This document shows positions 36,221-62,690 of a stretch of 64,000 bases of DNA, piece by piece; positions within the stretch are counted from its first letter, which is position 1, and every line of letters starts with the position of its first letter. Origin of the DNA: Candidatus Bathyarchaeota archaeon (GTDB taxonomy: Archaea; Thermoproteota; Bathyarchaeia; Bathyarchaeales; Bathycorpusculaceae); assembly GCA_963806535.1 (NCBI GenBank), contig CAWDYC010000007.1, positions 333,043-397,042 on the forward strand, in the 5' to 3' direction. Under the pieces are notes generated by a model. The model searched no databases. It worked only from the letters and a program-made list of their open reading frames with translations, and was not told the DNA's origin. Position numbers and translations under genes: made by a program.

Positions 36221-36225
36221 AGGAG

Positions 36226-37452: not shown

Positions 37453-37465
37453 AGAGTAGACATGT

Positions 37466-38779
37466 ATGGCGCATAAAGCGATTAGGGAAGCAGACGGGAA
37501 GCGAATGCTTGCTCGTCTGTTTAAGGACTACTCGGAAGAAAAATACGATGTTTCAGATAAAATTGTTACAGTTGATCCATGTACTGACATGGTGAAGCTG
37601 CCGAAACAATACGAATGGTTAACAACCGAAAAGTTGGTTGTCAAACCTGATCAGTTGATTAAGCGCAGAGGCAAAAACAACCTTGTTCTAGTTAATGCCA
37701 ATTTCGAACAAGCAAAAGCATGGATAGAAGAGAAATCCAAGAAACCTTTAACCATCCATGGAAAGTTTGATGCCCACGGAAAACCAGTCGATAAAGGAAT
37801 CGTTGGGCAACTTAACCACTTCATCATCGAGCCAATGGTGCCACACAAAGAATCTGACGAATCCTATCTTGCCATAATATCAACTAAAGACGGAGACACA
37901 ATCCTGTTCTACCCTAAAGGCGGCGTGAATGTCGGAGATGTAGACGCAAAGGCAGTCAGATTAAAAGTACCGATTGGTACATTCCCGAAAGCATCGGAAA
38001 TCGAAAAAAAATTGTTAGCAGAGGTGCCTGCTGACTGCAAGAAGCTGATTTCCTGTTTCATCGAATCGTTATTTAAATTCTATGCGGACCTGAACTTCAC
38101 TTATTTAGAAATGAATCCAATTGTTGTAACAAAGGATTCCGTTGTTCCATTAGATCTTGCTGCCAAACTCGATAGCACTGCCGAGTTTGAAAGCGGGACG
38201 AAGTGGGGAAAAATAGAGTTTCCCGCTCCTTTTGGCCGAACGCTAACTAGAGAAGAAGCATACATTGAGGAATTGGATTCTAAAACTGGTGCATCGCTTA
38301 AGTTAACCGTTCTTAATCCGGAAGGAAGAGTGTGGACAATGGTTGCAGGCGGCGGTGCCTCCGTCATTTACGCAGATACAATTACCGACCTTGGTTTCAT
38401 GCATGAATTGGCGAATTACGGTGAATACTCTGGTGACCCAAGCGAGGAATTTACCTACTCTTATGCAAAAACAATTCTCGAAGTCATGACACGAAAGCCG
38501 CATCCAAAGGGGAAGTTTCTGCTCATAGGTGGCGGAATAGCAAATTTCACTGACGTCGCAAGCACATTCAAAGGCATTATCAAGGCGCTTAAAGAATACC
38601 AGAAGAATCTTCAGGAAAACAAAGTCAAAATTTATGTTCGGAGAGGAGGCCCCAACTACAAGGAAGGTCTCTGTCAAATGAGAGAGCTGGGAGAAAAGCT
38701 AGGTGTGCCAGTCGAAGTCTACGGGCCAGAAACTCACATGACCAAAATTGTTTCAATGGCCTTAAAGGAAGGAAAGTAA
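37466..38779 (+). CDS. aclB: ATP-citrate lyase beta subunit
   Basis: [41 protein letters not shown]. Confidence 0.92.
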
Positions 38780-38780
38780 C

Positions 38781-40631
38781 TTGGCGAAAACAAAATCCAC
38801 CAAGAAAGAGTCATGTGAACTGTTCGATAGGTGCACTCAAGCATTCATTTACAATAATCAGGTCAATGCGACCCAGAGAATGCTGGACTTCGACTATATA
38901 GCGGGGCGTGAGACCCCGTCAGTTGCAGCAATAATTAACCCTACGGGCGTTGACAGTTTTGCAAAGTTTTTCTTCGGCACGAAAGAAATTTTGATTCCTA
39001 TATACAAAACCTTCGAAAAAGCAACAAAGCTGCATCCAAATGTGGATGTGGTGATTAACTTTGCATCATTTAGGTCGGCGGCATCTTCAACTGAGGAAGC
39101 ACTCAATCTTTCGCATATACGAACCGTTGTAATAATAGCCGAGGGCGTTCCTGAGCGGCGAATGAAAATGGTCACCGCCAAGGCTAAAGCTCTTGGAAAA
39201 GTCATTATTGGACCCGCAACAGTAGGTGGAATAAAAGCTGGAGCGTTCAAAATCGGCAATGCAGGTGGCACAATTGAAAATATCATTGACTCCAAGCTTC
39301 ATAGACCCGGTTCCGTAGGTTTTGTATCCAAATCCGGTGGGTTAAGCAACGAAGCATACAACATCATAGCAAGAAACACGGATGGTCTATACGAAGGTAT
39401 AGCTATTGGCGGAGACACCTATCCTGCCTCAACGCTTCTTGAACATCTTCTCAGATTTGAATGCATTCCAGAAATCAAAATGCTCGTGTGCTTAGGTGAA
39501 GTAGGCGGAACTGCTGAATACGACATTGCTGAAGCAATTAAGAACAAAAAAATAACAAAGCCCTTGGTGATTTGGGTCACTGGCACATGCTCCAAGGCGT
39601 TCAAGACTGAAGTTCAGTTTGGCCATGCAGGTGCAAAAGCTGGTTGTGATGTAGAGACTGCCGATGCAAAGAATGCAGCGTTGAGGAAAGCCGGTGCTAT
39701 AGTTCCCAACTCTTATGATGATTATGACCAGAAGATTAGGGAGACATATGAGAGCTTGGTATGTAAGGGTATCATTAAGCCTAAGCCAGAGCCGCCCGTG
39801 CCTAGGATCCCTATGGATTATGCTAAGGCAGTAAAAGAGGGCCTGATCAGGAAGCCTGCCAATTTTATCTGCACGATTTCCGATGATCGAGGCGAAGAAC
39901 TACTCTACGGCAAAATGCCGATTTCCGAGGTCTTTAAAAAAGACATAGGCATCGGCGGAGTACTCAGTATCCTTTGGTTTAAACGTCAGTTTCCGGCATA
40001 CGCGACCAAGTTCATAGAAATGGCTATTATGGTTACAGCCGATCACGGACCAGCAGTGTCGGGAGCTCATAATACAATAGTTGCAGCAAGAGCAGGTAAA
40101 GACCTGATTTCTTCCGTGGCAAGTGGTATGCTTACCATTGGTCCCAGATTTGGAGGCGCAATCGACGGTGCAGCCCAAATGTTCTCCTCTGCATTTGACA
40201 GAGGCTTAACTCCTACACAATTCGTTGAAGAAATGAAACAGAAAGGCGAAACCATCCAAGGAATCGGACACTTGATAAAGAGCATAAACAACCCTGACAT
40301 GCGGGTCTCCATCATGAAAGAATACGCTAAAAAACACTTCAAAGCAACACCACTTCTAGACTATGCCCTTGAGGTAGAAAAGATTACCACAGCCAAAAAA
40401 GACAACCTCATATTGAACGTAGACGGGTGTATCGGAATTTGCTTTGTTGACATGTTAAGAAACGAAATGACAAAACAGGAAGCTGACGAATACATTCAGA
40501 TGGGTGCCCTCAACGGCTTATTCGTAGTTGGCAGAACAATTGGCATGACGGCTCACTTCTTGGATCAAAAACGGCTAAAGCAAGGTCTCTACAGACATCC
40601 ATGGGACGACATTACATACATGACAGAATAG
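38781..40631 (+). CDS. aclA: ATP-citrate lyase alpha subunit
   Basis: GPATVGG, FGHAGA phospho-His, [26 protein letters not shown]. Confidence 0.92.
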
Positions 40632-40695
40632 TTAGATTTAAGAAATCGCATCTAGCACGTTTTTCGAGTTTCGTTCTTTCACTGAATCCAAGCAG

Positions 40696-40902
40696 CTATA
40701 TCGCTGAACATTTAACCCACAATCTAAGCCACTCTAAATACTCGTCTCCATCAAGCCACTCAACATAAGGTTTTTCCTCACTGTTTAACGGCTCATAACG
40801 TACAAAATGTCGTCCATTAGACGTGCTAAATAAAATAGCTTTGAAATCACCAAAGTCACTGATGCCTTCAGCAATCTTTTCCATTTTGCTAAACCCGCTC
40901 AA
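40696..40902 (-). CDS. Small hypothetical protein
   Basis: 68-aa ORF of plausible composition; no motif recognised. Confidence 0.45.
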   Translation of the reverse strand: MSGFSKMEKIAEGISDFGDFKAILFSTSNGRHFVRYEPLNSEEKPYVEWLDGDEYLEWLRLWVKCSAI

Positions 40903-41036
40903 GACTTGATATTCTTTGATTTAGATATAAAACTAACGCAAATCAGCACGTCTCTAATTAGCGCTTGACGACGGGTCATTTTGGGAGAATTTGAGCCTAT
41001 CGAGTAAAATTGCACCTGCTCTTTGAAGCTTTCACT

Positions 41037-41936
41037 TCAAAAATCGATTGTTTTGCCAAGATGTTTCTTTACTTTTTTGCTTAGATCATTTATTGTTGCG
41101 AGGCTTTTCACTCTCTGCGCGTTTTCTATGCCTAATTGGACATCTTCTTTGTCGATTGTCGATTTTTGACCAAATTCGGCTGACTGTCCGGCTGTGAGTA
41201 GCATTGACATGCCGAGGCGAATATCAGCCATGTCCTCGGTTGCTTTTGCAATAGTGTTTAGTAATTCATCCGAAATAACGTTTGGTTTGAAAGCCTGCTG
41301 AGCTCGGTCTTTCAGAATTTGGAATGCTTCTGATGCTGAATATGGATTAAAAAGGATCATCATCGGCTGTAATGTACTTAAGCATCTTTCCGGAAGTTGG
41401 GTGGCTTGACTTAATTTGTTACTTATTAGGATTAGTGTTGTTTTTGGTTGCCGATTCAAGTAGTAGATTAATGGTTCTTTTTCTTTGAAGAGAATGCTTT
41501 CAACTTCATCAATGGCTATTAAAACGGGTTTTTCTTTGAGCGTGCTCTCGAAAGCTTGTTTAAGGCGAAAAAATTGCCATCCGATTTCTGGTACTTCAAT
41601 ATTAAGCTGTTTAAGAATTTCAAGTAAAGTATAATATGGATTTCTGGTTCTGCCCGCATTTACGTAGGCTGCGGCAACCGGGCAATTAATATCTTTTGAG
41701 TGCCGCAGCGTTTCCTTCAGTAAATATTGAATACTTGCTGTTTTGCCTGTCCCTGGGGGTCCCCAAACAAAGAGGTTTCTCGCGCGACCCGCAGTGAAAA
41801 TGCTGGAAATGTTTGAAGCCATTGAAGCTAGATACGTTTCACGGCAAAGAGGTGTTCCGCTCGGCGGGTCCGATTGTGCATCTAAGACAACAGCATCTTG
41901 AAGTATATTGCTCTTTCTTGTTTCAAACAGCGGCAT
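41037..41936 (-). CDS. Cdc6/Orc1 paralogue lacking the C-terminal winged-helix domain
   Basis: GPPGTGKT, YVNA, IDEVE, ILISN, FNPY, DIR sensor motifs; ends at 299 aa. Confidence 0.85.
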   Translation of the reverse strand: MPLFETRKSNILQDAVVLDAQSDPPSGTPLCRETYLASMASNISSIFTAGRARNLFVWGPPGTGKTASIQYLLKETLRHSKDINCPVAAAYVNAGRTRNPYYTLLEILKQLNIEVPEIGWQFFRLKQAFESTLKEKPVLIAIDEVESILFKEKEPLIYYLNRQPKTTLILISNKLSQATQLPERCLSTLQPMMILFNPYSASEAFQILKDRAQQAFKPNVISDELLNTIAKATEDMADIRLGMSMLLTAGQSAEFGQKSTIDKEDVQLGIENAQRVKSLATINDLSKKVKKHLGKTIDF

Positions 41937-42365: not shown

Positions 42366-42408
42366 TGGCGCAGAGGAAGGGATTCGAACCCCACTTTACT
42401 AGTAAAAC
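42366..42408 (-). repeat. tRNA 3'-end-like att scar A (T-loop, acceptor strand, G-CCA; tRNA-Ser-like) with adjacent palindrome
   Basis: Minus strand GGGGTTCGAATCCCTTCCTCTGCGCCA; followed on the plus strand by TTTACTAGTAAA. Confidence 0.75.
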
Positions 42409-42451
42409 TAACTCAATCTTTCACAGTACTTACATGGAGATTGTTCTGAAC

Positions 42452-44044
42452 TTAACGGTAGCTAAGAAATTTACTGATATTCTTTAACAGTAGATTAGAA
42501 ACGTCTATAGTCTCTTCATCAATAGCTATTACGTAAACATCTATTACGTTTCCTACTTTAGTTCTCATCATCGCTTTTTGAGCAAAGTAGGGCAAGGTTG
42601 GAGCTATTGTATATAGCACAACATGAATATGGTTAGTTAGGATAATTTGTTCCAACCATTCAGTAAGGTCTGGTGCATTAGGAAATATGTATAGATCCCC
42701 GCTTTCACCAAAATTTAGTGCTAAACTTTTTTCATCATCATTTAACTCAAAAATGTACTTTGGAAAAACTCGTTTTCCATGATCAAACGTTGCAAAGTCC
42801 CAGTACTGATATAGATTTAGTTGAGAATCGCAAGGCGCCTTAGGAAGCAATTTTCCGTTTTCTTCAAAAAAGTCAGTGTACCCTAATGCAGCGGCACCCA
42901 TTCCTTGATTAATTACCTTTTTTCGGCTTCTTGCAATTTGGTAATCTGCAAGATAGCTGCTAATTGAGCCTTGTAAGTGTTTTACCGCATTAAAAGTTTT
43001 ATGAAAATCATCGAAAGTTATTGTTTCGGAGTACTTAGTCAAAACCAACAGTTTGTCATTAATACGGATCTCGAGTTCGTTGTGGGCTATGGCGTTTCTA
43101 AGGTGTGTGTTATAACTTGATTTGATTTCAAAGGGTAAGTTTGGTTGAAGGTATTCTACCTTATCTGCAAGACTAGATACTTTCCTCGGCTTTCCTTTGA
43201 CTTTAATTGGCGGCAATTCTACCGCTGAAAAAGGAGTTTCCTGAACTAGCTTTCCGTTAATAATATTTAGTATATTAAGAAGAAAATCAAGGTAGACATC
43301 AATTTCTACTGTGTCTTGATACGTTGATAGCTCTAATTGTATTTTCATCCTCTCAGAATTTACCTTCTTAGTGTTTATCAGACCCTCCTGCAATGATTTT
43401 GTTGAATTTTGAGATTGTAGGACCCTTAACATATCCTCTTTGCCGTAAATGTTCATTGTAGCATGGTGGCTTTTTTTCCAGTCGCAGACTGCTAAGTAGA
43501 GCTTCTCGAATTCTTCTGGGTTTGTTTTAAACGCATCATCCAAGAGTTTCTGCACTTCTGGCATGGGTTTGTATGATATGTCTGGGAAATGATTGAACAG
43601 GACTTCCATAAAATCATAATAACCTACTAGCATTTCTGCATGCGTATTAGTGGGAAATAGACCCAGGGCCAATTTGCTCAATGCTTCAACATCCTCTGGT
43701 TTCATATTTTGTTCCGTCTTTGTTACAAACTCATCTCTTTCGTCAATAAATTCGGTAATCTCTTCGAAACGCTTGAGGAATTGAAAGTTTAGCATTTCTT
43801 CCTCGTAACCTTTGCATACTTTGCACGGCACATTGCTAGATTGATATCTCTTCTTTAGTTGCTCTGCTCTTTCATGCGATAATAACATTAATTCGCCGCA
43901 CTCACACTGGTGTACCTCAAGCTCCGGGTACTTACCTCCGAGTACATCCTTTACATGATCCAAAAAATTGTTACTTAAAATGCCGTGACCTCTTTTTTCA
44001 AAGAGCTTCTCGAAGCTTCGCTTCATCAATTTCTTTCCACTCAT
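42452..44044 (-). CDS. Putative HEPN-domain protein with N-terminal Zn-binding motif
   Basis: CECG..CKVC and LRNAIAHN (R-x4-H) at 43082-43099. Confidence 0.6.
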   Translation of the reverse strand: MSGKKLMKRSFEKLFEKRGHGILSNNFLDHVKDVLGGKYPELEVHQCECGELMLLSHERAEQLKKRYQSSNVPCKVCKGYEEEMLNFQFLKRFEEITEFIDERDEFVTKTEQNMKPEDVEALSKLALGLFPTNTHAEMLVGYYDFMEVLFNHFPDISYKPMPEVQKLLDDAFKTNPEEFEKLYLAVCDWKKSHHATMNIYGKEDMLRVLQSQNSTKSLQEGLINTKKVNSERMKIQLELSTYQDTVEIDVYLDFLLNILNIINGKLVQETPFSAVELPPIKVKGKPRKVSSLADKVEYLQPNLPFEIKSSYNTHLRNAIAHNELEIRINDKLLVLTKYSETITFDDFHKTFNAVKHLQGSISSYLADYQIARSRKKVINQGMGAAALGYTDFFEENGKLLPKAPCDSQLNLYQYWDFATFDHGKRVFPKYIFELNDDEKSLALNFGESGDLYIFPNAPDLTEWLEQIILTNHIHVVLYTIAPTLPYFAQKAMMRTKVGNVIDVYVIAIDEETIDVSNLLLKNISKFLSYR

Positions 44045-44171
44045 TAATTTTCACCATTCCTATCGCTCCCTTAATTTATACTGTTAGTGGATTATTCTTT
44101 AGAGGTCTTTTATTGAGAGTATTTTTGTTTTGCGCTCCTGTAAATAATCCCAAGATTAATCGGAGTTTGCC

Positions 44172-44199
44172 GGGAATTCGAACCCCAATTTCATATTAA
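44172..44199 (-). repeat. Degenerate tRNA T-arm-like scar C
   Basis: Plus strand GGGAATTCGAACCCCAATTTCATATTAA aligns with scars A and B. Confidence 0.6.
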
Positions 44200-44300
44200 G
44201 CTATCTATTTGGAGCACAATCCATTGGTTTTTCAGTTGAACGGTTAAGTCCATCCAATTTAATTGGCAAACAATAAATTATTTATCCTGAGAATTAACTC

Positions 44301-46107
44301 TTAATATGCCTCTAATGCTTGAAAATACGACAAGAAGTCACCAATTAAGCGGGTGCTAAATAATTCGAAAATCTCTTTAATTGTCCGCATGTCTTCTCTA
44401 TCCGTCAGTATGAAAAAAATTGGAATGGTTTCTAACTCGACTTCTAAAACATTCTTTAATGACGATAGATTATCGACTTTATCCTTAAAGCAGTCTTCGA
44501 GTCTTCTAAAAAAGTAATAGTTCACGAGCAAATTAACATTAGCATCTGGAACTTGCTTCTCTAAGAAAGCTTCCATGGTGTGAAGTTTTAACGCAGTAAT
44601 GGGATTGGTTCGTGCGGAAAATAAAATATCTTGGAATACCACAGCTAAATTAGTTACATCCTCCGATTTACTTCCAGCAAAGGCGCGCTCTAATAAATTA
44701 GAAAAAACCTTTGCAGTAACGACAATCATAGTTTTATTTATCTGATCAAGCTTCACGAAATCAAATTCCAAGTTTATTGCTTCAGAATGTTCTTTCAACC
44801 GTGCAGTAGGTGAAGTCAAATAATGCATTATATATACCATAGATTCATCAAAAAGTTTTAGCAAGGAATAGGATTTTGAAATAAAAAGAACTGTTGGAGA
44901 CGATGAAGCCGAATCAAGCAATCGTTGATTTTCACGGGCACGATAGAGAATTTGGGCAGTATATTCCTTCACACGGTCATCGGGCATTAAAAGATAGCCC
45001 ATAATTGCTCTGGCAGTAATAGTAGGGCTAGCGAAACTATTCCCAGCAATATCCAAAACATTGGTCGCTGAATGAAAGATTCTTATTAAAAGAGAATCGG
45101 AAAAAGATCTCTCTAAGCCCTCGTAAAACGTTTCATATATTTTCTCTCTTAAATAATTCATTGATTCCATAAAATCTTTGTCGTCAACAAAACAAAATTC
45201 AGATTTCTTAACATCAACTTTGAAAGTATCGTTCTTAACCTTTTCAGTAAAAGAAAGGTATTTTTTTAAGTCTTCAGACTGGAGTTGAGCGCCTAAATTT
45301 GCATGATGCGCATCCCTCGCTATCCAATCAATTCTATCTCCGTTTATTCCACCAACTTTGTGATAGGTCCCCACGATGGTGGTAAGCAAGTGAATCTTTC
45401 GAAGTAGCTCTTTATTTTCGATTTCATCAAATAGTGGTCGTTTTTCTTCCATGATGATTTGAGCAACCACTTTCTCAAGGTTAGACCTGATATCTTCATC
45501 CTCTATTTCTTTTGAACAAATATTGAGAGCTTTTTTGATCTGATCATTTTTTAGCAGCAAATATAAAGTGATTGCACTGTCCAGTTTCTTAGGGGTATAA
45601 GTTTCCATTGTTTGTCCAAGTAATTCGACAACAAAACCTGTAATTCCGTCTAAAGCGTGTCCCCATGCAGGATGACCTAAGTCATGCAATAAAGCCGCAA
45701 TCCTTAGAACGACTTCTTCATCATTTGTTATTTTAAGTGCGTTTTCGTCTTCTTTAGCTGGTAAAGAAGAGAGCTTCGAAAGGATGCTGCTGCTTTTTTG
45801 CATAACTCCGTAGACTATGCTCATATCTCGTGTGGGTAGCCCCCGGAAACAAGATGTGAGTACTTGATAGTTGCCTAATCTCCCTGAGTCGCATTACCAA
45901 AGGCAATTGAACAAGATACATTATGTACTTTGGAAGATCGGTTTTCCCGTAAATAGGCAGTATTTCAGAACTCGCCTTTACCTTATCATAATCATTTATG
46001 ATTTGTCCTGGTTCCCGATCATAACTTGATTCGTAATATCCTACTAATTCATAGAAAAGAGGGCCAAAAATGTTGTAGGTGTCTCGCCAGTATACTGGAG
46101 ATGTCAC
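44301..46107 (-). CDS. HD-domain phosphohydrolase (SAMHD1/YwfO dNTPase-like), frameshifted near 45810
   Basis: RLREIRQL..FPGATHTRYEHSL in ORF 45754-46107, then AALLHDLGH..GH and DRIDWIARD in ORF 44301-45824. Confidence 0.85.
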
Positions 46108-46493
46108 GTAGAAGTAACCACACAGGGGCTTTCTTTAACAGCTTCGTTTATCCTGATGGTGTATTGGTCAAAAAGCTTAACTCCTGTTAGATTTGCTGAA
46201 TCTTCTACTACCTTAACTATTTTGTTCAATTTTGTTTGGTCTGTAATTTTTATTCTTACTTTTTCTATATTATTCTCGTTGCCTTCTAATTGAACAATTC
46301 CGAGTTTCTGCAAGTATCTAAAATCGTCATAAAGATCTTCTTCACCATCGTGAAACACCAGTTTCTTTTTTCGCCAAAGAATATCAAATACAAAATCGGA
46401 AAATTCTTTGAATTGCAAATCATCGCACTTTTGTGGACGCCCTTCACATTTCTCGCAATATTTTCCAAATATATACGTTGTATAAGTCCACAT
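46104..46493 (-). CDS. Small Cys-containing winged-helix-like protein coupled to the HD gene
   Basis: CEKC..C; EDLYDDFRYLQKLGIV; 4-nt overlap with the HD gene. Confidence 0.55.
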   Translation of the reverse strand: MWTYTTYIFGKYCEKCEGRPQKCDDLQFKEFSDFVFDILWRKKKLVFHDGEEDLYDDFRYLQKLGIVQLEGNENNIEKVRIKITDQTKLNKIVKVVEDSANLTGVKLFDQYTIRINEAVKESPCVVTST

Positions 46494-46628
46494 TTCAATT
46501 TCTCCTCAATATCCTTCTATTGCATTCCGTAACTTAGGGTTTTTGGTGTGTTACAGGTTACGTAACGCATAACGCTAATTAAGTACTTTAGGTATTTATT
46601 TTTTGCCCTCAGTCCAGGTGTCCATCAA

Positions 46629-47384
46629 TTGTCTTTTGATATACTTCGCAAAGAGAAAACCGTGGATATACTCCTAACCTTACTTAAGGGGGCTAAAGGA
46701 ATTAGGGAAATCCAAGAATCAATTGGCGGCAGTAATTCAACGCTTATTCAAAGAATCAAAGAATTATTACTTGAGGAATGCTTAATCGATGATTACTTAA
46801 CTGGAGAAGAATTTGGAAAAATACCGAGAAACAAACGCTTGATTCGATTAACACCTAAGGGAAAGAAAATAGTTGATTCTCTAATAGAATCTGGGTTCGT
46901 TAAACAATCTTGTCTTGAAAAAGATAGACAAAAATGGATTCTTTGCTCGCTTGATATTCTGGCAAATGTCAAAGGAAATACAAGAATGACAAAACTGCTT
47001 TTCTTGCTTCGAAATGAATTAGGGGCAAGAACAGGTAATTTTTTCAGGTTCAAACCTCATTTTTATGGTCCATACTCAAATCAGGTGGCTGATGATCTAA
47101 TTTCTATTGAAAAACTTGGGCTATTATACAAAAGAGCAATTCGTTTCAAGAAGCGAGACTGTGGAGATGAACGAGTTGTTTACGAATATTCGCTTACAGA
47201 AAACGGCAAATCAGTCAGCCAAGAACTTTTTAAGACGCTTCAACCTGGTGAAATCAAAGCAATTCAAAGACTCAAAATTTACAATCAGATGCCCCTCGAT
47301 GATTTGCTAAAATATGTTTATCGCCAATACCCGAGTTTTACCACTAAATCCAGGAATACTCAAAAAAACCCTTGGAGAAAGTAA
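46629..47384 (+). CDS. Winged HTH fused to a Panacea/DUF4065 (SocA/YwgA-like) domain
   Basis: N-terminal HxlR-like HTH; TRMTKLLFLL..FRFKPHFYGPYSNQVADDL signature. Confidence 0.75.
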   Translation: MSFDILRKEKTVDILLTLLKGAKGIREIQESIGGSNSTLIQRIKELLLEECLIDDYLTGEEFGKIPRNKRLIRLTPKGKKIVDSLIESGFVKQSCLEKDRQKWILCSLDILANVKGNTRMTKLLFLLRNELGARTGNFFRFKPHFYGPYSNQVADDLISIEKLGLLYKRAIRFKKRDCGDERVVYEYSLTENGKSVSQELFKTLQPGEIKAIQRLKIYNQMPLDDLLKYVYRQYPSFTTKSRNTQKNPWRK

Positions 47385-47460
47385 TGTTGGATAAAAGAAT
47401 GCTATTTTTATTATGTAGTATAGACTTTGAAGATTTGTTAACTTACCGCAAAAGTTTAAT

Positions 47461-48576
47461 TTGTTTCCTAACAATGAGGGTTTCCAAGAAGAAAATTCGG
47501 GGAGTGCCACTTTGTCTGAGCAGATAGTGCAAATTGTTGATAGAAATACCTTGTACATGCACTACGATAAAGTTTACACTATGCGAGGGAGAAAGCCCTC
47601 TCTGAAGGCTTTAATTGTGTTATCAGATATTTCTGTTAACGAATTGGAAGACTGTCTAAAACGCAAGTATAGTCTACATAAACAATACTTCATAAAAGTA
47701 AATCCGTTGAGCGATTCGCTCTATAGCGTTGTTATTCAAAGGACAATTGGTATCGAACAAATACGAGATGAAGTCTTCATCGATACTGGATGCAAAGGAA
47801 TCTGGATAATTCTAACCGAGGCTGAATCCTACTTCGTTAAGCGTGTTGTCGAGTCTTTATGCAAAAAGATGTATCCATTAATTTCAATGTTTTACCTAAA
47901 CTATTCTCAGATGCGTTTTCTTACCGAAACCATTGAGAAAACCTGCGAAGGGGAAGTTGCGCTTACTTACTTTACAATAAAAAGATTCAAGGATGATGAT
48001 GAAGCAACCGAGGCAATGTGGGCTAAGGACGTTGATAAGGAAATCAAAAGATTGTTGCTTGACGGATTTACTGTAAAAGTTGATAGATTGGAATTTAAGC
48101 TAAAAGACAAAGAAGGAGCAATCCTCAGAGCCCAGCTATCCAGAAAAGGGATCTGTGAATTGAAATATGGAAGCTTCTCGTCATTTTACCAGAATGTTGT
48201 TTTTAACGCAATAGAATATGGATTAACCCAAAAGAAATTCTATTCAGAACGGCAAAGAAGCGTAGAGAAAGGAACAATACAGGTCTTTCCTCTAAAAATT
48301 GATTATGATTATTATATTCACGAAGAGCAAATGGCACGTTTTATTAAGAAAATAACTGGTAGTTATTCATGCTCTGTTGTTCATGCAGGAAATCCATATT
48401 TTGTTGCTGATTTATGTGATTACGGGGACGGTTCATCATTTGGTCTCGCTATTTTAGGAAGTTCAATCACCCTAACTCCAATTTCTAGAGCCAATGCTTC
48501 TGCAGTATGGAAATTAACTGGTGAACTTCAGGAAATATTCGGGGACGGCAAGGTCATAGATGTTAAAATGGAGTAA
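47461..48576 (+). CDS. Hypothetical protein
   Basis: 371-aa ORF, 5 nt from the next gene; conserved-looking HAGNPY..DGSSF segment; no family recognised. Confidence 0.7.
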   Translation: MFPNNEGFQEENSGSATLSEQIVQIVDRNTLYMHYDKVYTMRGRKPSLKALIVLSDISVNELEDCLKRKYSLHKQYFIKVNPLSDSLYSVVIQRTIGIEQIRDEVFIDTGCKGIWIILTEAESYFVKRVVESLCKKMYPLISMFYLNYSQMRFLTETIEKTCEGEVALTYFTIKRFKDDDEATEAMWAKDVDKEIKRLLLDGFTVKVDRLEFKLKDKEGAILRAQLSRKGICELKYGSFSSFYQNVVFNAIEYGLTQKKFYSERQRSVEKGTIQVFPLKIDYDYYIHEEQMARFIKKITGSYSCSVVHAGNPYFVADLCDYGDGSSFGLAILGSSITLTPISRANASAVWKLTGELQEIFGDGKVIDVKME

Positions 48577-48581
48577 AAGCA

Positions 48582-49640
48582 TTGTTTAGTCTGCTAACTA
48601 AACAACAGCAGTATGAAAAGGAAATCCGAAAGTATTCAGATACAGTCGCAGTTCTGTCTGCAGTTTATAGCATTTTGAAGCAAAATCCCCCAATCGCAGA
48701 GTATGTTGGTGTTGAAACCAGACTGATGAATGAGCGTGGGAAAGAAATTGAACCAGACTTAACTGCAATGTACGATATGCGAAGGAAAGGGTTGCTTTTC
48801 GAATTCAAGTGGTCAATGTCGTTTTCGGATGAATGGCTTAAACAAGATATTGAGAGTCTCGAAGAGTATTCAATAAAATGTTCAAAGTGGAGAAATTCCA
48901 CGGGCACAGTTGATTATCATGATCTCGTCCTTGTTTGCCACATGGAGGACGCGGCAAGAGCAACGGAATTAATTACTAAAATGGCGAGTAATTCTAAATA
49001 CGCGTATTTGGCTTCTGAGGGATTTGCTGTGTGGACATGGATTATTTCTGTTTCTCGGAAAGGTGGTTGTGGAGAAAACCTCATTTTGACTAGACAATAT
49101 GGAAAGATACGTAATTCAGACTTAGACAATAAAACAAAACCTCCGACGGGACTGGTTCTTCCTGACGAAGCATTAACCTATCTCAGAACCTCTTTTCATT
49201 TTATTAAAATGAAGCCTCCAGTTCAATATACGATAATAAAACTAATCCAACATGTTTTCTCTCAATTCCAAGATTCAAGACGGGGCAAGGATGTTTATGA
49301 GTTAACGACTGACATGATTTACGAAAAAGCTCAGGTAATTTTCTTTTCTTGGAGAGATATAGATGTACAAACCGTACAAGCAAAGAGAAAATGGGTTGTT
49401 GAGGCATTAGAAATGATGTACGCGTTGAAATTAATAGGAAAGACAATTGACAAGTCTAAGTGGCTCGTACCAATACCTACAACGCGCCCTAGGATTCAAA
49501 TGCAAGAGGCCATCTGTAAGAAACTAGCAAAATATACCCTGAAAGAGACTTCTCCCAGAAAACACAGATTAAAACCTCCTAAATCTGATAGCAAACCTCG
49601 ACCGGGACTGAAAGCAACTACATTAATGGATTATAAATGA
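48582..49640 (+). CDS. Putative PD-(D/E)XK nuclease-domain protein
   Basis: E..EPDL..LLFEFKWS pattern in the N-terminal half. Confidence 0.6.
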   Translation: MFSLLTKQQQYEKEIRKYSDTVAVLSAVYSILKQNPPIAEYVGVETRLMNERGKEIEPDLTAMYDMRRKGLLFEFKWSMSFSDEWLKQDIESLEEYSIKCSKWRNSTGTVDYHDLVLVCHMEDAARATELITKMASNSKYAYLASEGFAVWTWIISVSRKGGCGENLILTRQYGKIRNSDLDNKTKPPTGLVLPDEALTYLRTSFHFIKMKPPVQYTIIKLIQHVFSQFQDSRRGKDVYELTTDMIYEKAQVIFFSWRDIDVQTVQAKRKWVVEALEMMYALKLIGKTIDKSKWLVPIPTTRPRIQMQEAICKKLAKYTLKETSPRKHRLKPPKSDSKPRPGLKATTLMDYK

Positions 49641-49655
49641 TACGATAAGTTTTGT

Positions 49656-49698
49656 TGGCGCTGGGGGAAGGGATTCGAACCCCAATTTAATAGTAAAC
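49656..49698 (-). repeat. tRNA 3'-end-like att scar B
   Basis: Minus strand GGGGTTCGAATCCCTTCCCCCAGCGCCA; plus-strand tail AATTTAATAGTAAAC; direct repeat of scar A. Confidence 0.75.
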
Positions 49699-49812
49699 CG
49701 CTAAGGTTTTGCTTACTTTCTTTCTGACAATGGTGGTAGAACGCAGCTTATCGTTAAAGCAATCGTTAGAACTAAAAATCATAAAGAAGAACCAAGGTTT
49801 TGAACCCATTTT

Positions 49813-49942
49813 CAGACTGGTAAAAACTATTTTTGATTTCAGAAAATTGCTATTTTTATATCGTTTTGCAGTGTTTAGAACCTTTCTTTTCAGATGTAAG
49901 TAGCAATTTTTAAAACTAAATTTGAGTTTTTTACACAGCCTG
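49813..49942. mobile_element. 130-bp MITE with IS1182-like ends
   Basis: Ends CAGACTGGTAAAAACT and AGTTTTTTACACAGCCTG resemble the IS ends at 60642 and 62286; internal IR AAAATTGCTA/TAGCAATTTT; ATTTT on both flanks. Confidence 0.7.
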
Positions 49943-50296
49943 ATTTTGGGTTAAAACCATAGAGACTCAAATCGTTTCTGATTCGAATCCAACCATAAAT
50001 AAATTTCTCACCTACTTGTCCTCATTTCTTGAGTTTCAGGGTTTCTACTTCTGCATCGTTTATGTATCATACTAACAAGCCGCACTCCCAACTTTTAGGT
50101 GAAGGGGGCGAACAAGAGAAGGAGCTAGAGCGATTGCTCGCTAAATATCTGGTGTAGCAGAAATAGCCTCAATCTTAAAAAACTATTTATTTCGACCCAA
50201 TGGGTACGCACAAAGCATAAATGCAAACTGAATCAATATTCACGACGGGGTTCAGTTTCGCATCCAATATGCTTCCAGTTACCTAAAAAAGATTAG

Positions 50297-51625
50297 TTAG
50301 GTACTGGGCTTTATTTTTTGCTCTCTAAGTTCTTCATTAGTGTACTCCCTAATTATACCCTGTAAGCCTTTGCTTATTATCCACATAAAAACATAGGATA
50401 AAACAAAAACCGTACCAAGAACTGCTGGTATAGCAAGCAACTGAAGCCCAAGTTGGTGCAAGGCTTGCATGCCGCCACCAAATAATAGACCATTTGGTAA
50501 GCCAGAGCCACCTCCAAAAGAAGCGTATGAATACTGCGCAAAGAACGCCACCATAACAAAACCAAATATACCGCCAAGAAAATGACCTGGAAAAAGACCA
50601 ACTGGATCAGTAAACCATTTGGCTCTCTGAAATAATTTCTCACCTAAAAGAAATACAATTGAACCTAATATTCCAAGAATTACAGCGCTACCTGGACTAA
50701 CATAACCGGCAACGGGTGTGATAACGATTAAACCGATAAGAATACCATTTGCAGCATACATTATACCCGGCAGTTTTCTTATCTCTAGAAACTTGAAAAA
50801 CATGGTAAATAGGAAACCAGTTGAAGCAGCCAAGAAAGTGATCAATACCACAATGTAGGATTGGATATTTAGCGCTAATGTGCTTCCTGGATTGAAACCA
50901 AACCAGCCGAGCCAAAGCAGAAGAATTGACAAAGATAGCCAAGGCGTGTTTGGCTTAGCCTGTATCTGCGGGCTTTCTCTGAATCCTTTCTTTTTTTCCT
51001 CTTGCCAAACTCTTAAAACAATTGCTAAACCTGCCGCCCCTGCAGCTCCATGAACAACCAATCCACCTGCAAAATCTCTTATACCCATAACAAAGAGCCA
51101 GCCTTGCGGATTCCAAATCCAAGCGGCTGGCAATGCCCAAATGAGAACAAAGTAGGGAATTGAAAAAAGAAAGAAGGCTTCCAACTTCATTTTCTTCAAA
51201 ACAATTACGCCAACTAACGCAAGGGTTACAGTCGCAAACGCAGTTTCAAAGAAAAAATAAGATGGAAGAGTAACTAGATTGTTAAAATACTTTGGACCCA
51301 TTGACCACCAAACTTGGGTGAAAATATCAGCGGAGTTGCTTTGAAAACCCCCCATGAACGGGAAATTATAAAGTGGATTACCTATCAAGCCCCTGCCTAT
51401 TGTTGGTGCAAAGGCAACGCTAAAACCAATGAATGCCATGAAAAAGAAGCCTGAGCACGATATCATAATATTCTTTAATAATGCTCTATTGGCACCTCTG
51501 CCAAGTTCGCCCCTCTCCAGTATTCCAACTGAAATAGTCATGATGAAAACAAGAACACCGCATATCAAAACCCAAAGATTATTGAAAAGATTTTCTGCAG
51601 GAAGAGCTGACATCTTGGCATCCAT
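50297..51625 (-). CDS. amt: Ammonium transporter (Amt family)
   Basis: DFAGGLVVH, WLGWFGFNPGS, ITP, second His in DPVGLFPGH. Confidence 0.92.
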   Translation of the reverse strand: MDAKMSALPAENLFNNLWVLICGVLVFIMTISVGILERGELGRGANRALLKNIMISCSGFFFMAFIGFSVAFAPTIGRGLIGNPLYNFPFMGGFQSNSADIFTQVWWSMGPKYFNNLVTLPSYFFFETAFATVTLALVGVIVLKKMKLEAFFLFSIPYFVLIWALPAAWIWNPQGWLFVMGIRDFAGGLVVHGAAGAAGLAIVLRVWQEEKKKGFRESPQIQAKPNTPWLSLSILLLWLGWFGFNPGSTLALNIQSYIVVLITFLAASTGFLFTMFFKFLEIRKLPGIMYAANGILIGLIVITPVAGYVSPGSAVILGILGSIVFLLGEKLFQRAKWFTDPVGLFPGHFLGGIFGFVMVAFFAQYSYASFGGGSGLPNGLLFGGGMQALHQLGLQLLAIPAVLGTVFVLSYVFMWIISKGLQGIIREYTNEELREQKIKPST

Positions 51626-51644
51626 CCCTTAGGCTACTTCGGCA

Positions 51645-52793
51645 CTATAGTAGCACCATTGCAAAATGATGCATTAACTGCATAAGCACTGGAGCACTGC
51701 CACTTGTTAACATAATTATTTGCGCCGGAGCTATTGAAGGCAAAACTTTTGCTCCCAACTCTATAAGCCAAGCAGTGAACACAAACGGGCCAGTTAGGGT
51801 GGGCAGATTGAAACGTCCTGTTATTGTTGCCATGAAAGCCGTTACTACAGTTGAGAAAGCCGTGGCGAAAAGCATTACGAAGAAGTTAATTGGTGCACCA
51901 TTGAAGGGACTTATTGGCCAGAGGAACCCAACAAAGACACCCATGACAGCCAAGGCGGTTAAAGTTCCGTTAAAACCGTACAGCCCAATTAAGACAGATG
52001 ATCTGTCAGCTTTGAAGGCAATAGCTGCTAATGTTGCAGAAAGAGTACCTATGAATGCTGTGATTCCAGCAAAGTATATTGGATATTGCACTGGGAACCC
52101 ATAAGGGTTTAATGGGATGGTGGCGAGGGTTAATCCGATGAAAATTAAAACGCCTGTCTTCCAGTTTTCCTGAAAGAATACTTGAGCGATGCCTGTAAAG
52201 ACCAATTTTACAAATCCACTAGCGGTGAATTCACTTAATCGTAGGGGCTCTTTTTTCTCCGTGTCATTCGGGTTTTTGAGTAATGTGCTTCTTTGTTTTG
52301 GTGCAGGCGGAGGACCAGCCAACTTCACGCCGGAAAACTTTTTAGCTGCAAACAGGAAAATCCAAGTTGTTAATACAAACGCTGAAGTTTCAACAGGAAG
52401 GCCAAAAATTTTAGTGAACCAAATTAACGAAGCAGTAATAAATCCAGTTATTAAAGCGCCTATAACCGCTGCGGTTGTGGCTGACCGTCCTTTCTCAAGG
52501 AATGTATCGCCTAATGCGATAGCCGTTAAAACAGAGTTAAACCCAAAGATTCCATAAGTTAGCGCATTATCGGGTGAAGATAACGAAGCTGGGACCAACT
52601 CTATGCCTAGAGCTAAACCCACCAAACTACCTGCTATTGAACCAATGACAGCAAAGGCGGCTGCCCTTTTTGAGTTAATAGCCAGAGCAATTACAAAGAT
52701 AATTCCAACTAGAGGTGAGCCCATGAAGAAAACTTGAGCAACTCCGTTGAGAACGAAATTTATGGTTCCTGAAATTGGATCCAATAAAACCAC
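51645..52793 (-). CDS. Urea transporter (UT/Yut family)
   Basis: Duplicated GVAQVFF/GIAQVFF, GIFGFN/GLYGFN, LPVETSAF/LPTLTGPF. Confidence 0.88.
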   Translation of the reverse strand: MVLLDPISGTINFVLNGVAQVFFMGSPLVGIIFVIALAINSKRAAAFAVIGSIAGSLVGLALGIELVPASLSSPDNALTYGIFGFNSVLTAIALGDTFLEKGRSATTAAVIGALITGFITASLIWFTKIFGLPVETSAFVLTTWIFLFAAKKFSGVKLAGPPPAPKQRSTLLKNPNDTEKKEPLRLSEFTASGFVKLVFTGIAQVFFQENWKTGVLIFIGLTLATIPLNPYGFPVQYPIYFAGITAFIGTLSATLAAIAFKADRSSVLIGLYGFNGTLTALAVMGVFVGFLWPISPFNGAPINFFVMLFATAFSTVVTAFMATITGRFNLPTLTGPFVFTAWLIELGAKVLPSIAPAQIIMLTSGSAPVLMQLMHHFAMVLL

Positions 52794-52911
52794 TAAGTTA
52801 TGAAAATTGCGTTTATTATTTAAAATCTTGTTATAGGCGCTATACAGTCACATAATCTTAAACCGCTATCCGATACATTTTTAGTGTTGTTTTTAGAAAA
52901 AGGGTGAAAAA

Positions 52912-53235
52912 ATGAAGTTAGTTGCACGTGAAGTAGAAAAAATGATGATTTTCACTGCTGCACGAATGGCTGAGCGAAGAATGAAAGACGGGCTAAAACT
53001 GAATTATCCCGAAGCGGTCGCACTCATAGCTGATTATGTGCAAGAAGGAGCTAGAAGAGGCGTAATGGTGGCTAAAATAGCCAAAGATGCGAGGCATGTT
53101 TTGACGATGGATGACGTGATGCCTAACGTAGCCGATATGATAACTCTAGTGCAGGTGGAGGCAACTTTTCCAGACGGAACAAAACTAGTAAGCGTACATA
53201 ACCCAATCCAACCAAAGGAGGAACACAAGAAATGA
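52912..53235 (+). CDS. ureA: Urease gamma subunit
   Basis: [27 protein letters not shown]. Confidence 0.97.
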
Positions 53236-53609
53236 CCCCAAACACAGTAGGCCAAATAACCCTAGGAAAAGGAGACATAGAGGCATTCCAAAATAGAAAA
53301 TCAATTAAAATGAAAGTAAAGAACACTGGTGACCGAGGGATCCAAGTGGGTTCACACTTCCACTTCTTTGAAGCGAACAGGGCATTAGACTTTGACAGAG
53401 AAAAGGCATATGGCATGAAACTTGCAATTCCAGCAGGTACAAGCGTAAGATTTGAACCAGGCCAAGAAAAAGAAGTTACGCTTGTAGAATACGGAGGCAA
53501 AAAGTACATCCATGGATTCAACAACCTCGTCGACGGCAGTGTACGAACCATATACCGAAAAGATAGGGCACTTAGAAAAGCTAAGGAACTTAAATTCAAA
53601 GGAGCCTGA
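53232..53609 (+). CDS. ureB: Urease beta subunit
   Basis: [31 protein letters not shown]. Confidence 0.97.
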
Positions 53610-53614
53610 AAAAA

Positions 53615-55330
53615 ATGAAAATTCCACGAAAACAATACTTAGACTTGTATGGACCCACAGCCGGCGATAAAATTCAATTAGCAGACACAAACTTGATCAT
53701 TGAAGTAGAAAAAGATTGTACGTCATTTGGCGATGAGCTAGTCTTCGGTGGTGGAAAGACTGCTAGACAAGGAATGGGCTTAGCGGCTGGGACTACACAG
53801 GCAGATGGAGCTCTTGACCATGTTATCACCAACGTTGTAGTGTTGGATGCGATACTGGGTGTTGTCAAAGCTGACATAGGCATTAGAAACGGGGTGATTG
53901 CCGGAATTGGAAAAGCTGGAAATCCAAGTACAATGGATAACGTCACTGAAAACATGGTCGTAAGCAACTCAACCGAAGTAACTGCTGGAGAAGGACTGAT
54001 AGCCACTGCTGGATTCTTCGATACACATGTACATATGATATCTCCACAGCAAGTATACCATGCAATTGGAAATGGTATAACAACCTATATCGGCGGAGGC
54101 ACAGGACCTGCGGATGGAACAAACGCAACGACCTGTACACCTGGACCTTGGAACATAAGAAAAATGATAGAAGCATGTGAAGGATTACCAATCAACTGGC
54201 TTTTTCTAGGCAAAGCAAATGATAGTAAATCAGACACTATAGTTGAACAACTTGCTGCAGGAGCTGGAGGACTTAAAATGCATGAAGACTGGGGAGCTAC
54301 ACGGGCATCCTTGGACACTGGTTTAAGTGTAGCAGACGAATATGACGTTCAAATAGCGATACACACGGATTCACTAAACGAAGGAGGCTACGTTGACGAC
54401 TCCATCGATGCAATAGACGGAAGGACAGTACACACATACCACACGGAAGGTGCAGGAGGCGGACATGCCCCCGACATTATGAAAATAGCTGGAGAACCCA
54501 ATGCATTACCCTCCTCAACAAACCCCACGAGACCGTATACCGTCAATACTTTAGATGAACATCTTGACATGGTCATGGTAACTCACCACCTCAATCCTAA
54601 AGTCCCTGAAGATGTAGCATTTGCCGAATCAAGAATCAGAGCCGAAACGATAGCAGCAGAAGACGTATTCCACGATTGGGGCATTCTCAGCATGTATTCA
54701 GCGGACAGCCAAGCAATGGGTAGAACAGGAGAAGTCTCAACTAGATGCTGGCAGACTGCACACAAAATGAAAGAACAATTTGGCAAACTTCCTGAAGATG
54801 TTCCAGGAAATGACAACTTTAGAGTTTTGAGATACTTAGCTAAGCTGAACATAAACCCAGCAATAACAAACGGCGTTTCAGATTACGTGGGTAGTCTTGA
54901 AAAAGGAAAAATGGCTGATATAGTACTATGGGATCCAAGATTCTTTGGAGCAAAGCCAAACATAGTTTTCAAGGGAGGCTTCATAGCCTACGCAATGATG
55001 GGTGACCCCAATGCTTCAGTTCCACCAGTTGAACCAGTTTTCTTCAGGCCCATGTTTGGCGGATTCGGTTTAGCAAGATCGACAACATCAGCACTATTCA
55101 CATCAAAATTAGCTATTGAAAATGGTATCAAAGAAAAATACGGCATAAAACGCCAAGTTCTACCAGTATACAACGTAAGAAACTTGGGCAAGCAACACAT
55201 GATACGGAACAGCACACTCGGCGAAATAAAAATCGACCCGGAAACATACAAAGTAACATTCAATGGTAAGCCGGCAACTTGTGAACCTGCAAAAACATTA
55301 CCTTTAACTCAGCTCTATCATCTAGTATAG
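53615..55330 (+). CDS. ureC: Urease alpha subunit
   Basis: [37 protein letters not shown]. Confidence 0.98.
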
Positions 55331-55368
55331 ACGCTGAGTCTTCCATCTTTTTTTGGAGCAAGGATAAT

Positions 55369-62687: not shown

Positions 62688-62690
62688 TTA

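Follow-up and report, generated by a model that had tools for sequence, protein, structure and literature searches.

How do three copies of a tRNA gene end come to lie, all in the same orientation, between the gene blocks of an archaeal contig? The question is raised by a stretch of 64,000 nucleotides of a Candidatus Bathyarchaeota archaeon (assembly GCA_963806535.1, contig CAWDYC010000007.1, positions 333,043 to 397,042), hereafter called the window. The genome it belongs to, a 2.95-Mb assembly of 12 contigs with 41% GC and an estimated contamination of 3.4%, is indicated as G000; other genomes of the genus have similar handles and contigs are given as C plus a number, the window being C7:333043-397042. 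Three sites of the window (A, B and C) had been interpreted, in an original prediction, as displaced tRNA ends at an integron-like site accumulating defence cassettes. According to the data presented here, it is very probable that they are the scars of tandem site-specific integration into the 3' end of the tRNA-Ser(CGA) gene, and that what they delimit is a relic array of units lacking a recombinase. The locus illustrates clearly a process already known, and related archaea use the spot for it to this day. Its interest lies in a genus-wide integration hot spot in Bathyarchaeota, which are uncultured, abundant in sediment and soil, and little studied as to their mobile elements.

The three sites and their parent tRNA

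Probing the window with GGGAWTTCGAACCCCA (up to two mismatches) retrieved three matches, all on the plus strand, at 42378, 44172 and 49669, against 0.05 expected by shuffling; three or more matches occurred in none of 100 shuffles. A direct reading of the letters gives the same picture as the original prediction, that is, three tRNA 3' ends on one strand sharing a tail that is not part of a tRNA. In reverse complement, each site corresponds to a tRNA 3' end (the tRNA sense being the minus strand) and matches tRNA-Ser(CGA), with at least two changes, over the part that begins at the CCA and reaches the T-stem's 5' strand. Past the latter the tRNA runs into its long variable arm, and the fragments run into the tail instead. 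Sites A and C share the T-arm AAGGG-ATTCGAA-CCCC, and the tail of site A, TTTACTAGTAAA, is indeed the perfect palindrome previously described (type-1 tail). The acceptor strands have drifted from that of the tRNA, with two changes in A, one change plus one extra base in C, and a truncation in B. The acceptor strand and CCA had been assigned to A and B; they are carried by A and C, B being decayed and lacking the CCA. The tRNA-end and tail part of site C occupies 49656-49697, and the stop codon of the preceding open reading frame (ORF), of 352 amino acids (aa), lies at 49640, 16 nt ahead of it. As previously stated, the sites fall between gene blocks: according to the ORF list, all three are in the intergenic gaps that separate them.

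The parent had been suspected to be a tRNA-Ser, and it was found as tRNA-Ser(CGA) at C3:472263-472387, the only tRNA of this type in G000, with a 38-nt intron at 37/38. The same tRNA was found in 97 of 101 genus genomes. The window itself contains no tRNA according to ARAGORN (with and without introns) and to Rfam at gathering thresholds.

One may ask whether the sites are functional tRNA-like RNA elements, such as 3' processing signals or parts of a split or permuted tRNA gene, or else chance tRNA pseudogenes. A T-arm joined to an acceptor resembles half of a minihelix, and the extended tail of site C is conserved for about 150 nt in seven loci; however, neither a 5' acceptor strand nor any other tRNA part lies nearby, ARAGORN finds nothing, and Rfam, both at gathering and at E ≤ 10 over 40000-64000, finds no tRNA or other family at the sites. 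Moreover, the drift of the acceptor strands, and the homology breaks and gene-content changes that coincide with the sites (see below), are predicted by scars and not by RNA genes. We consider such an explanation extremely improbable. Two candidates at site C were rejected: a sub-threshold PreQ1 match (21.6 bits versus 39), which merely reflects the T-arm, and a split or intron-interrupted tRNA, since no 5' acceptor strand or D/anticodon arm was seen in the 200 nt to the right.

The interval between tRNA-Ser(CGA) and aclA in the genus

The genes 5' of tRNA-Ser(CGA) in G002, G041 and G049 are syntenic with G000 C3:461816-472024. On the 3' side, the conserved neighbour is the ATP-citrate lyase (ACL) operon (aconitase, IDH, aclB, aclA) in convergent orientation, aclA lying no more than 1.5 kb downstream of the tRNA at six of the 29 other tRNA loci examined. 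In the window, the homology of the sequence downstream of aclA with G002, G016, G056 and G000 C3:493970-494547 stops at about 40937-40943. Since in G002 the intact tRNA begins only about 35-50 nt past this point, G002 is an empty site.

In the relatives, the interval from the tRNA to aclA is either empty or filled by as many as four units of about 1-21 kb, most of those in the arrays measuring 1-9 kb (Table 1). Each unit ends with the tail, the T-arm, the acceptor strand and the CCA, and follows the intact tRNA on the expected side. The intact target tRNA stands at the proximal end of the array in G041, G038, G103, G049, G059 and G004, not in the G000 window. Read on the minus strand, the window has the same layout as these arrays: site C, unit 2, site B, unit 1, site A, an Orc1/Cdc6-like remnant and the aclA flank. 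Furthermore, a homolog of the unit 1 gene (72% aa identity) sits in G004 between the intact tRNA and a longer fragment of it. The fragments of G041 and G038 are nearly perfect, those of G000 drifted. A genus-wide count with a 23-nt tRNA-Ser 3'-end pattern (three mismatches) was set aside, as the pattern also matches other Ser isoacceptors.

Gene-content variation at the junctions

The original prediction had proposed that relatives be compared for gain or loss of cassettes at the junctions, and such variation was found at two of them; the uniformity among relatives that would have spoken against the prediction was thus not observed. The closest relative retrieved, G013, is 86% identical in the ACL region and 93% in the Orc1/Cdc6-like segment; its homology ends at 42393, inside the T-arm of site A, where a different tail (type 2) and other DNA follow, and no match to unit 1 or unit 2 was found in this genome. 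On the other side, G056:C22 is 93.3% identical to window positions 44173-45011 (839 nt), a homology that begins at the T-arm of site B and runs rightwards into the HD gene of unit 2. No homology of this contig was found to the left of 44173, and G056 has two other units ahead of its aclA. The ACL operons of the same two genomes are 74.6% identical over 3779 nt. The comparison of these two values indicates that the end of unit 2 has been exchanged horizontally far more recently than G000 and G056 diverged; the same pair of genomes shows that a tail moves together with the unit on its right-hand side (in window coordinates).

The arrays of relatives, the empty site of G002 and the breakpoints in the T-arm are all consistent with the predicted origin of the sites, i.e., displaced tRNA ends left by insertions in tandem. 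The genomes compared show that the scars are copies of the tRNA 3' end joined to element arms, bounding variable units, with breakpoints in the T-arm, at a genus-wide hot spot. The hot spot marks the exchange of accessory genes between lineages that are only about 75% identical in the neighbouring core genes, because the cargo is defence-like in G000 and concerns metal uptake, redox functions and regulation elsewhere.

Table 1. Features of the window and unit arrays at tRNA-Ser(CGA) in related genomes.
Feature	Position	Strand	Description
Ancestral flank downstream of aclA	40632..40943		In relatives, last sequence ahead of the tRNA-Ser(CGA) 3' end
Truncated Orc1/Cdc6-like AAA+ gene	41037..41936	-	299 aa, no C-terminal winged helix; Pfam Cdc6_lid/AAA_22
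Site A	42366..42406	-	TGG 42366-68; discriminator 42369 (G73); acceptor GCAGAGG 42370-76; T-arm 42377-93; tail TTTACTAGTAAA 42395-42406
Unit 1 cargo gene	42452..44044	-	530-aa protein; N-terminal Cys/His cluster and HEPN-like helical domain
Site B	44169..44199	-	Decayed; GCCGGG 44169-74; shortened T-arm 44175-87; tail TTTCATATTAA 44189-99; no CCA
Unit 2 HD-domain phosphohydrolase	44301..46107	-	dGTPase/SAMHD1-like N-terminus; ORFs 45754-46107 and 44301-45824; Pfam HD
Unit 2 129-aa protein	46104..46493	-	No assigned function; linked to HD gene; same pair in G068:C10 (65% aa)
Unit 2 three-gene module	46629..49640	+	251-aa winged helix-turn-helix protein, then 371-aa and 352-aa proteins
Site C	49656..49804	-	TGG 49656-58; acceptor GCTGGGGG; T-arm 49668-84; tail TTTAATAGTAAA 49686-97; about 105 nt of further conserved arm
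G000-specific junction	49805..50296		From array to Amt/urea-transporter/urease block; two multi-copy repeats
Array of G041:C11			Units of 4.2, 2.2 and 3.3 kb (3 sites)
Array of G038:C155			Units of 5.4, 2.6 and 3.6 kb (3 sites)
Array of G103:C28			Units of 1.2 and 3.8 kb (2 sites), then aclA
Array of G049:C1			Units of 7.1, 2.0, 1.0 and 3.0 kb (4 sites)
Array of G059:C7			Units of 8.6 and 21 kb (2 sites), then aclA

The tail

The type-1 motif ATTCGARCCCCANTTTNNTAKTAA (up to two mismatches) gave 50 matches in 28 of the 101 genus genomes, the reversed control giving three. An exact, stricter form of it was retrieved from 107 metagenome stretches; 15 of the 80 that were fetched carry more than one site of the tRNA-Ser type, and among the five fetched stretches with an intact tRNA, four have it on the expected side. 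Viral contigs yielded no exact match to the type-1 motif.

The alignment of 41 distinct sites revealed a conserved acceptor strand, the T-arm and a tail of 12-13 nt (consensus TTTACTAGTAAA), with nothing conserved beyond. The centre of the tail varies among CTAG, CCGG, CCAG and CTGG and the outer TTTA/TAAA is kept; this conservation is partly circular, since the sites were picked by a pattern containing the tail, the acceptor part being absent from that pattern. The type-1 tail is also joined to acceptor ends of the tRNA-Ser(GGA) type. Moreover, tRNA-Ser fragments of G013:C5, G056:C22, G067:C7 and G000 (C3:493241) are followed by the type-2 tail, which is similar to ACACCAGAGAAAGAGGCGATGTCA, and tails resembling it also follow fragments of other tRNAs, one of them at about 62703 of the window. 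Site C belongs to a subfamily with an extended tail, whose arm is conserved for about 150 nt and which is also present in G016, G059, G071, G077, G041:C1 and G109:C6; the region of site C is 91% identical over 149 nt to G059:C7:317354-317498. Tails that differ among elements and are shared within families have the appearance expected of the element-side arm of an attP site.

A partition of the integrase gene like that of the self-splitting (SSV-type) integrases was examined and rejected: the tails are non-coding and unconserved beyond 12 nt in the 41 sites, and no integrase-like ORF abuts them. The reading frames across site C and its G016 counterpart are closed within a few codons.

Recombinases

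In agreement with the statement that the window holds neither an intact tRNA nor an integrase, contig C7 has no match to PF00589 or PF00239, and the integrase hidden Markov model specific for the family described below retrieved nothing from the window. PF00589 was searched for in G000 and ten relatives, and its matches overlap none of the 16 type-1 units that are bounded on both sides in seven genomes (three each in G041, G038 and G049, two each in G000, G103 and G059, and one in G056). PF00239 gave no match in the five array genomes G041, G038, G059, G049 and G103, G056 being outside this search.

A tyrosine integrase with a Cys-rich N-terminus (CPxC...CxxC), presumably a zinc ribbon, is found directly after the tRNA and points toward it. 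In G039 it is intact, with 424 aa and the stop codon 35 nt after the CCA. In G013 a 95%-identical homolog follows the tRNA, whose alignment covers 292 aa and stops where contig C19 ends, the N-terminal part being at the start of C5. The gene is degraded at the same position in G000 (C3:472426-473700) and, after fragments, in G041 and G056. Relatives of its N-terminal domain exist in 81 of the 101 genus genomes, in many cases within an open frame of about 400-450 aa, and the same search in G000 finds the C3 pseudogene alone. Two integrase-bearing elements have both ends in hand, that of G000 C3 (21 kb) and that of G013 (about 20 kb); they have in common the integrase and the type-2 tail, and no cargo. 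The only intact integrase near a type-1 site is that of the metagenome loci L123 and L181, which have the same sequence; as it lies on the acceptor side of the site, it appears to belong to the neighbouring unit.

Remnants of the integrase C-terminus were also observed in G000 at C5:51948-52094 (by tRNA-Ser(GGA)), C3:124972-125037 (by tRNA-Leu(TAG)) and C5:335768-335962 (by tRNA-Arg(TCG)), which points to earlier integration events at several tRNAs involving the one integrase family.

The absence of an integrase from the type-1 units can be read in another way, that is, as a dedicated system of cassette capture, functionally similar to an integron, in which small integrase-less circles are captured singly at tRNA-Ser(CGA) by an integrase acting in trans, encoded either by the chromosome or by an element. 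The type-1 site (tRNA-Ser from T-arm to CCA plus the 12-nt palindrome TTTAC-YRG-TAAA) would then be borne by the cassette, and the units would be small by nature. The PF00589 count over the 16 bounded units, whose ORFs look like ordinary, apparently intact cargo, agrees with this, as do the size of most units (1-9 kb), the tail conserved for exactly 12-13 nt by the core with a variable centre and fixed outer TTTA/TAAA in the 41 sites, and its association with tRNA-Ser(GGA)-type ends. So does the end of unit 2, with its 93% identity where the ACL operons have 75%, and so does a NikR-ZnuABC unit that is the first after the tRNA in G041 and the third in G038. However, the tail statistics are partly circular, no match was found in viral contigs, and the units, being multi-gene, of mixed orientation and endowed with regulators of their own, are unlike integron cassettes. 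Furthermore, a weak remnant of an integrase was found in one of the bounded metagenome units (L164), and the small type-2 units clearly derive from decay (unit Y of G056, with an integrase remnant, and units of 1.2 kb in G013 and 0.85 kb in G067). We regard cassette capture as a tentative possibility. Its most explicit form, a tRNA-anchored gene capture of archaea in which type-1 cassettes circulate among Bathyarchaeota and are stacked in trans by the tyrosine integrase with the Cys-rich N-terminus, is doubtful. If it were true that integrase-less units are mobilised as such, they would constitute a tRNA-based archaeal counterpart of gene capture by integrons.

A possible history of the array

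Under the preferred reading, tandem integration into the tRNA-Ser(CGA) 3' end, the following scenario can be depicted. The ancestral arrangement in the genus would have been tRNA-Ser(CGA) placed tail-to-tail with aclA. An element whose attP contains the last ~30 nt of the tRNA would recombine with the tRNA gene, which would be regenerated, the old end being displaced, as with tRNA-targeting tyrosine integrases. Each further unit, recombining at the T-arm, would bring in a new acceptor and CCA and shove the older units, together with the previous tRNA end, toward aclA; by repetition, units would be stacked with the newest adjoining the tRNA. Each scar would accordingly be of the attR type, namely, the last ~30 nt of tRNA-Ser(CGA) joined in the T-arm to the tail of the right-hand unit. 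The order of age in the window, oldest first, would be the Orc1/Cdc6-like remnant, unit 1 (HEPN-like), unit 2 (HD gene, 129-aa protein and three-gene module) and a third unit. The enzyme responsible may have been a tyrosine integrase of the family found beside tRNA-Ser(CGA) in relatives. The units, which carry no recombinase, resemble cis-mobilizable elements, in which att sites are kept and the integrase is absent; we weakly infer that they were inserted, and possibly moved, by the integrase of another element. The service in trans put forward in the original prediction is plausible in this sense.

Several observations weigh against this history. The comparison between G000 and G056 covers only 839 nt, as the G056 contig starts inside the HD gene, and the remainder of unit 2 was not found in the G056 assembly. 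The NikR-ZnuABC units of G041 and G038 are 84% identical where their flanks are 81%, with the tail-proximal ~170 nt non-homologous, and vertical descent followed by insertions next to the tRNA would explain this pair equally well. The integrase-bearing elements with both ends available carry the type-2 tail, none with a type-1 tail having been identified, and in the metagenome locus L160 the type-1 site is on the wrong side of the tRNA. Finally, neither an excision product nor a circular form, nor a polymorphism of empty and occupied sites in a single population, was observed, the mobility of the units being deduced from genome comparisons, and the assembly around both G000 loci may be partly chimeric, in which case the detachment of the array from its tRNA could be an artefact.

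In practical terms, the 3' end of tRNA-Ser(CGA) followed by the 12-nt tail represents a simple handle for recently acquired genes in metagenome-assembled genomes (MAGs). Since many of the sites are at contig ends, the scars themselves probably break assemblies.

State of the array in G000 and assembly

The G000 array is a decayed relic, as indicated by the drifted fragments, the frameshifted HD gene (see below), the tRNA that does not adjoin it and the integrase pseudogene. It is probably frozen, because the only G000 copy of the cognate integrase family is the pseudogene on C3. The third unit, ending at site C, survives as only about 150 nt of arm.

To the right of this arm, the array is joined to the Amt/urea-transporter/urease block through two intergenic repeats of ~135-170 nt (about 49794-49949 and 49960-50194), copies of which, 74-85% identical, exist on G000 C4 (two), C5, C7, C10 and C11 and in many genus genomes, in some cases right beside tRNA-Ser fragments (G041:C11:1296606, G072:C24:2970 and G095:C3:5095). 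These repeats might be MITEs, promoters or small RNAs. Homology with G003 and G010 resumes at 50288-50309, and their Amt/urease block lies elsewhere. On C3, the tRNA is followed by the integrase pseudogene, 21 kb of other DNA, a fragment with the type-2 tail and, 715 bp later, the final 90 codons of a second aclA, past which the DNA has 66% GC. In this terminal region (C3:494277-504927), the second aclA end is 92% identical at the amino acid and 77% at the nucleotide level, and is followed by about 10 kb of 66% GC up to the contig end, which is probably chimeric or foreign.

In the real genome, then, the array might still adjoin the tRNA, the join at 49805-50296 and/or the end of C3 being an artefact of repeats or of co-assembled strains. 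The multi-copy repeats in the junction point in this direction, together with the shift of C3 to 66% GC 0.5 kb past the second, diverged aclA end (a sign of chimerism), the 12 contigs and 3.4% estimated contamination of G000, and the situation of G013, whose tRNA and aclA-side fragments are on separate contigs linked by the integrase gene. On the other hand, the C3 locus is self-contained, and splicing it to the array of the window would leave two aclA ends. An artefact of this kind seems unlikely to us; in any case, the assembly displays an array detached from its tRNA, and this detachment should be taken as apparent rather than established.

Gene content of the units

The Orc1/Cdc6-like gene (Table 1) matches TIGR02928 over positions 19-295 of 366. 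Its segment, which in G013 likewise abuts a tRNA-Ser fragment, is absent from the empty site of G002. With the aclA flank on one side and site A on the other, it is the oldest of the inserted segments.

The 530-aa protein encoded by unit 1 had no match in Pfam, PADLOC, NCBIfam or PHROG; its family counts 20 members, with homologs in Thermococcus, Methanosarcinales and Heimdallarchaeota MAGs. Judging from the residue pattern, its N-terminal cluster (H45 Q46 C47 C49 ... C74 C77) is presumably a zinc ribbon. The residues R316 N317 A318 A320 H321 N322 E323 (motif RNAxAHNE) are invariant in 17 aligned sequences, and RNAIAH at 316-321, a candidate for the Rx4-6H motif that HEPN domains carry in a four-helix up-down bundle, is invariant in 17 homologs. 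In the AlphaFold2 model (mean predicted local distance difference test score 75), the top VIA-align matches of residues 168-372 are HEPN domains with Z 6-8, values below 8 being common for helical bundles: the AbiA C-terminus (Z 8.0, root-mean-square deviation 3.6, 129 aligned residues), an HEPN-MNT toxin (Z 6.8) and HI0074 (Z 6.6). Foldseek of the model against the PDB gave no match at E ≤ 0.001. Motif and model together lend at most moderate support to the protein being HEPN-like.

As for unit 2, the HD gene has, besides Pfam HD, weak dGTPase matches only. Its homolog in G068 is a single 605-aa ORF spanning both G000 pieces, the frame changing in G000 at the EHSL|GVM junction, so the G000 gene is frameshifted, either as a pseudogene or through an assembly error. 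In the three-gene module, the C-terminal domain of the 251-aa winged helix-turn-helix (wHTH) protein matches the PADLOC candidate PDC-M19A (E 8e-15); the 371-aa and 352-aa proteins had no family matches, and PHROGs added nothing for the unit proteins. The 371/352 pair also occurs in G095:C61 (70-72% aa), so that the two halves of unit 2 are found separately, in G068 and G095, in both cases away from any tRNA-Ser site.

A survey of the cargo in relatives, in which 18 of 20 scanned proteins had a match, returned NikR with ZnuABC, a PAS histidine kinase, a hybrid-cluster protein with HTH_10, a CBS protein, SDR with OYE and MBL, TrmB, CDC48 with TBP, and Ig-like and NHL-repeat proteins. The units hold from one to five genes, on both strands, and their own regulators (NikR, HTH_10, TrmB, wHTH). 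The original description as a defence-cassette site is hence overstated. It agrees with the look of the G000 units, which is defence- or toxin-antitoxin-like (the HEPN-like protein, the frameshifted HD gene and the PDC-M19A match), and does not extend to the genus: from the metal-uptake, redox and regulatory cargo of relatives, the hot spot is not defence-specific.

CDC48 and TBP are usually core genes. In G059:C7 (L056, 4504-8270) they are contained in the unit that lies between the tRNA and the extended-tail fragment, the CDC48 being 97.6% identical at the amino acid level to G000 C3:499-2664. Their presence in such a unit hints that recombination between att sites may also rearrange chromosomal segments.

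Comparison with known systems

The closest known things are the tandem accretion of integrase-less islands, such as cis-mobilizable elements (CIMEs), and the ssrA islands of Dehalococcoides. The former process, in which integrative elements and CIMEs accrete at the 3' ends of tRNA or other genes, is reported for bacteria, with the ICESt1-type elements of streptococci as the case treated in the relevant part of PMC5704250. As described there, it shares with the present locus the repeated integration at one 3'-end att site with direct repeats of that end, and units having attL/attR and decayed neighbours, and lacking integrase or transfer genes. In the window, units 1 and 2 are bounded by sites B/A and C/B, no PF00589 or PF00239 match exists on C7, and no transfer genes are present. 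The case described here differs in being archaeal, in having no conjugation genes in the arrays examined and in its 12-nt palindromic arm; mobilisation is here putative.

The islands of Dehalococcoides depend on the serine recombinase DsiB and the tmRNA gene ssrA, in the account of PMC3146451 considered here. That account, too, portrays one small-RNA gene as the hot spot of a whole genus, with tandem islands bounded by repeats of the 3' end, a short conserved motif by the repeat that does not match the gene, insertion in the T-loop and adaptive cargo; many of the islands are devoid of an integration module. The differences are that a tyrosine recombinase with a Cys-rich N-terminus is associated with the present hot spot, that the target is tRNA-Ser(CGA), and that the units are mostly much smaller.

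In other archaea, integrated elements at tRNA genes, also in tandem arrays, are dealt with in a survey of Thaumarchaeota (PMC6563490) and a review of tyrosine recombinases (PMC8371274), whose pertinent sections report 3'-distal targets including intron-containing tRNAs, re-use of sites and loss of the integrase after integration. In those sections, the elements are mainly whole ones (proviruses, integrative and conjugative elements, cryptic elements) with short att sites, which is where they differ from the array. Neither the hot spot of Bathyarchaeota at tRNA-Ser(CGA)/aclA nor the type-1 tail was found described in a literature search, to which supplementary tables were external.

The term integron-like, used in the original prediction, was not upheld: orientations are mixed, units are multi-gene with regulators, and no IntI/attI/attC architecture was recognised. 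Integrons, also reported in archaeal MAGs (10.1101/2022.02.06.479319/PMC9668308), are similar, in the features that this source outlines, in that units devoid of an integrase, each provided with its own recombination site, accumulate at one place as a co-oriented array; they differ in their IntI, attI and folded attC-type sites, in place of which there is a tRNA 3' end, and in that the units here are multi-gene and lie in both orientations. In particular, no IntI-type integrase heads the array, the integrases seen lying inside elements by the tRNA end; single, co-oriented, promoterless ORFs are not found; and, instead of attC, the repeated site consists of a tRNA end followed by a 12-nt palindrome (attC models were not run). 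Integrons may therefore serve as an analogy only, not as a family assignment.

Other observations

The regions flanking the array (34283-40631 and 50297-56195) comprise a complete aconitase-IDH-aclB-aclA operon next to ureABC-ureE and the genes of transporters for ammonium and urea. In G010 the ACL and Amt/urease blocks are 75 kb apart and in reverse order, and G003 yielded no DNA matching the ACL operon. Rfam gives a match below threshold to 5_ureB_sRNA (29 bits versus a gathering threshold of 40, E 3e-4) at 53768-54062; it lies on the minus strand, in antisense to the beginning of ureC, and may only reflect the conserved urease coding sequence.

Lastly, about 1.3 kb from the contig end, at 62680-62745 on the plus strand, the window contains another tRNA 3'-end fragment, GTGGGGTGGGATTTGAACCCC, followed by a type-2-like tail ending with GGTGTCAC. 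A further element, with its tRNA beyond the window, probably integrated here and left this fragment as its distal scar. A similar site is present in G000 at C4:41426, 14 kb from a tRNA-Ala.

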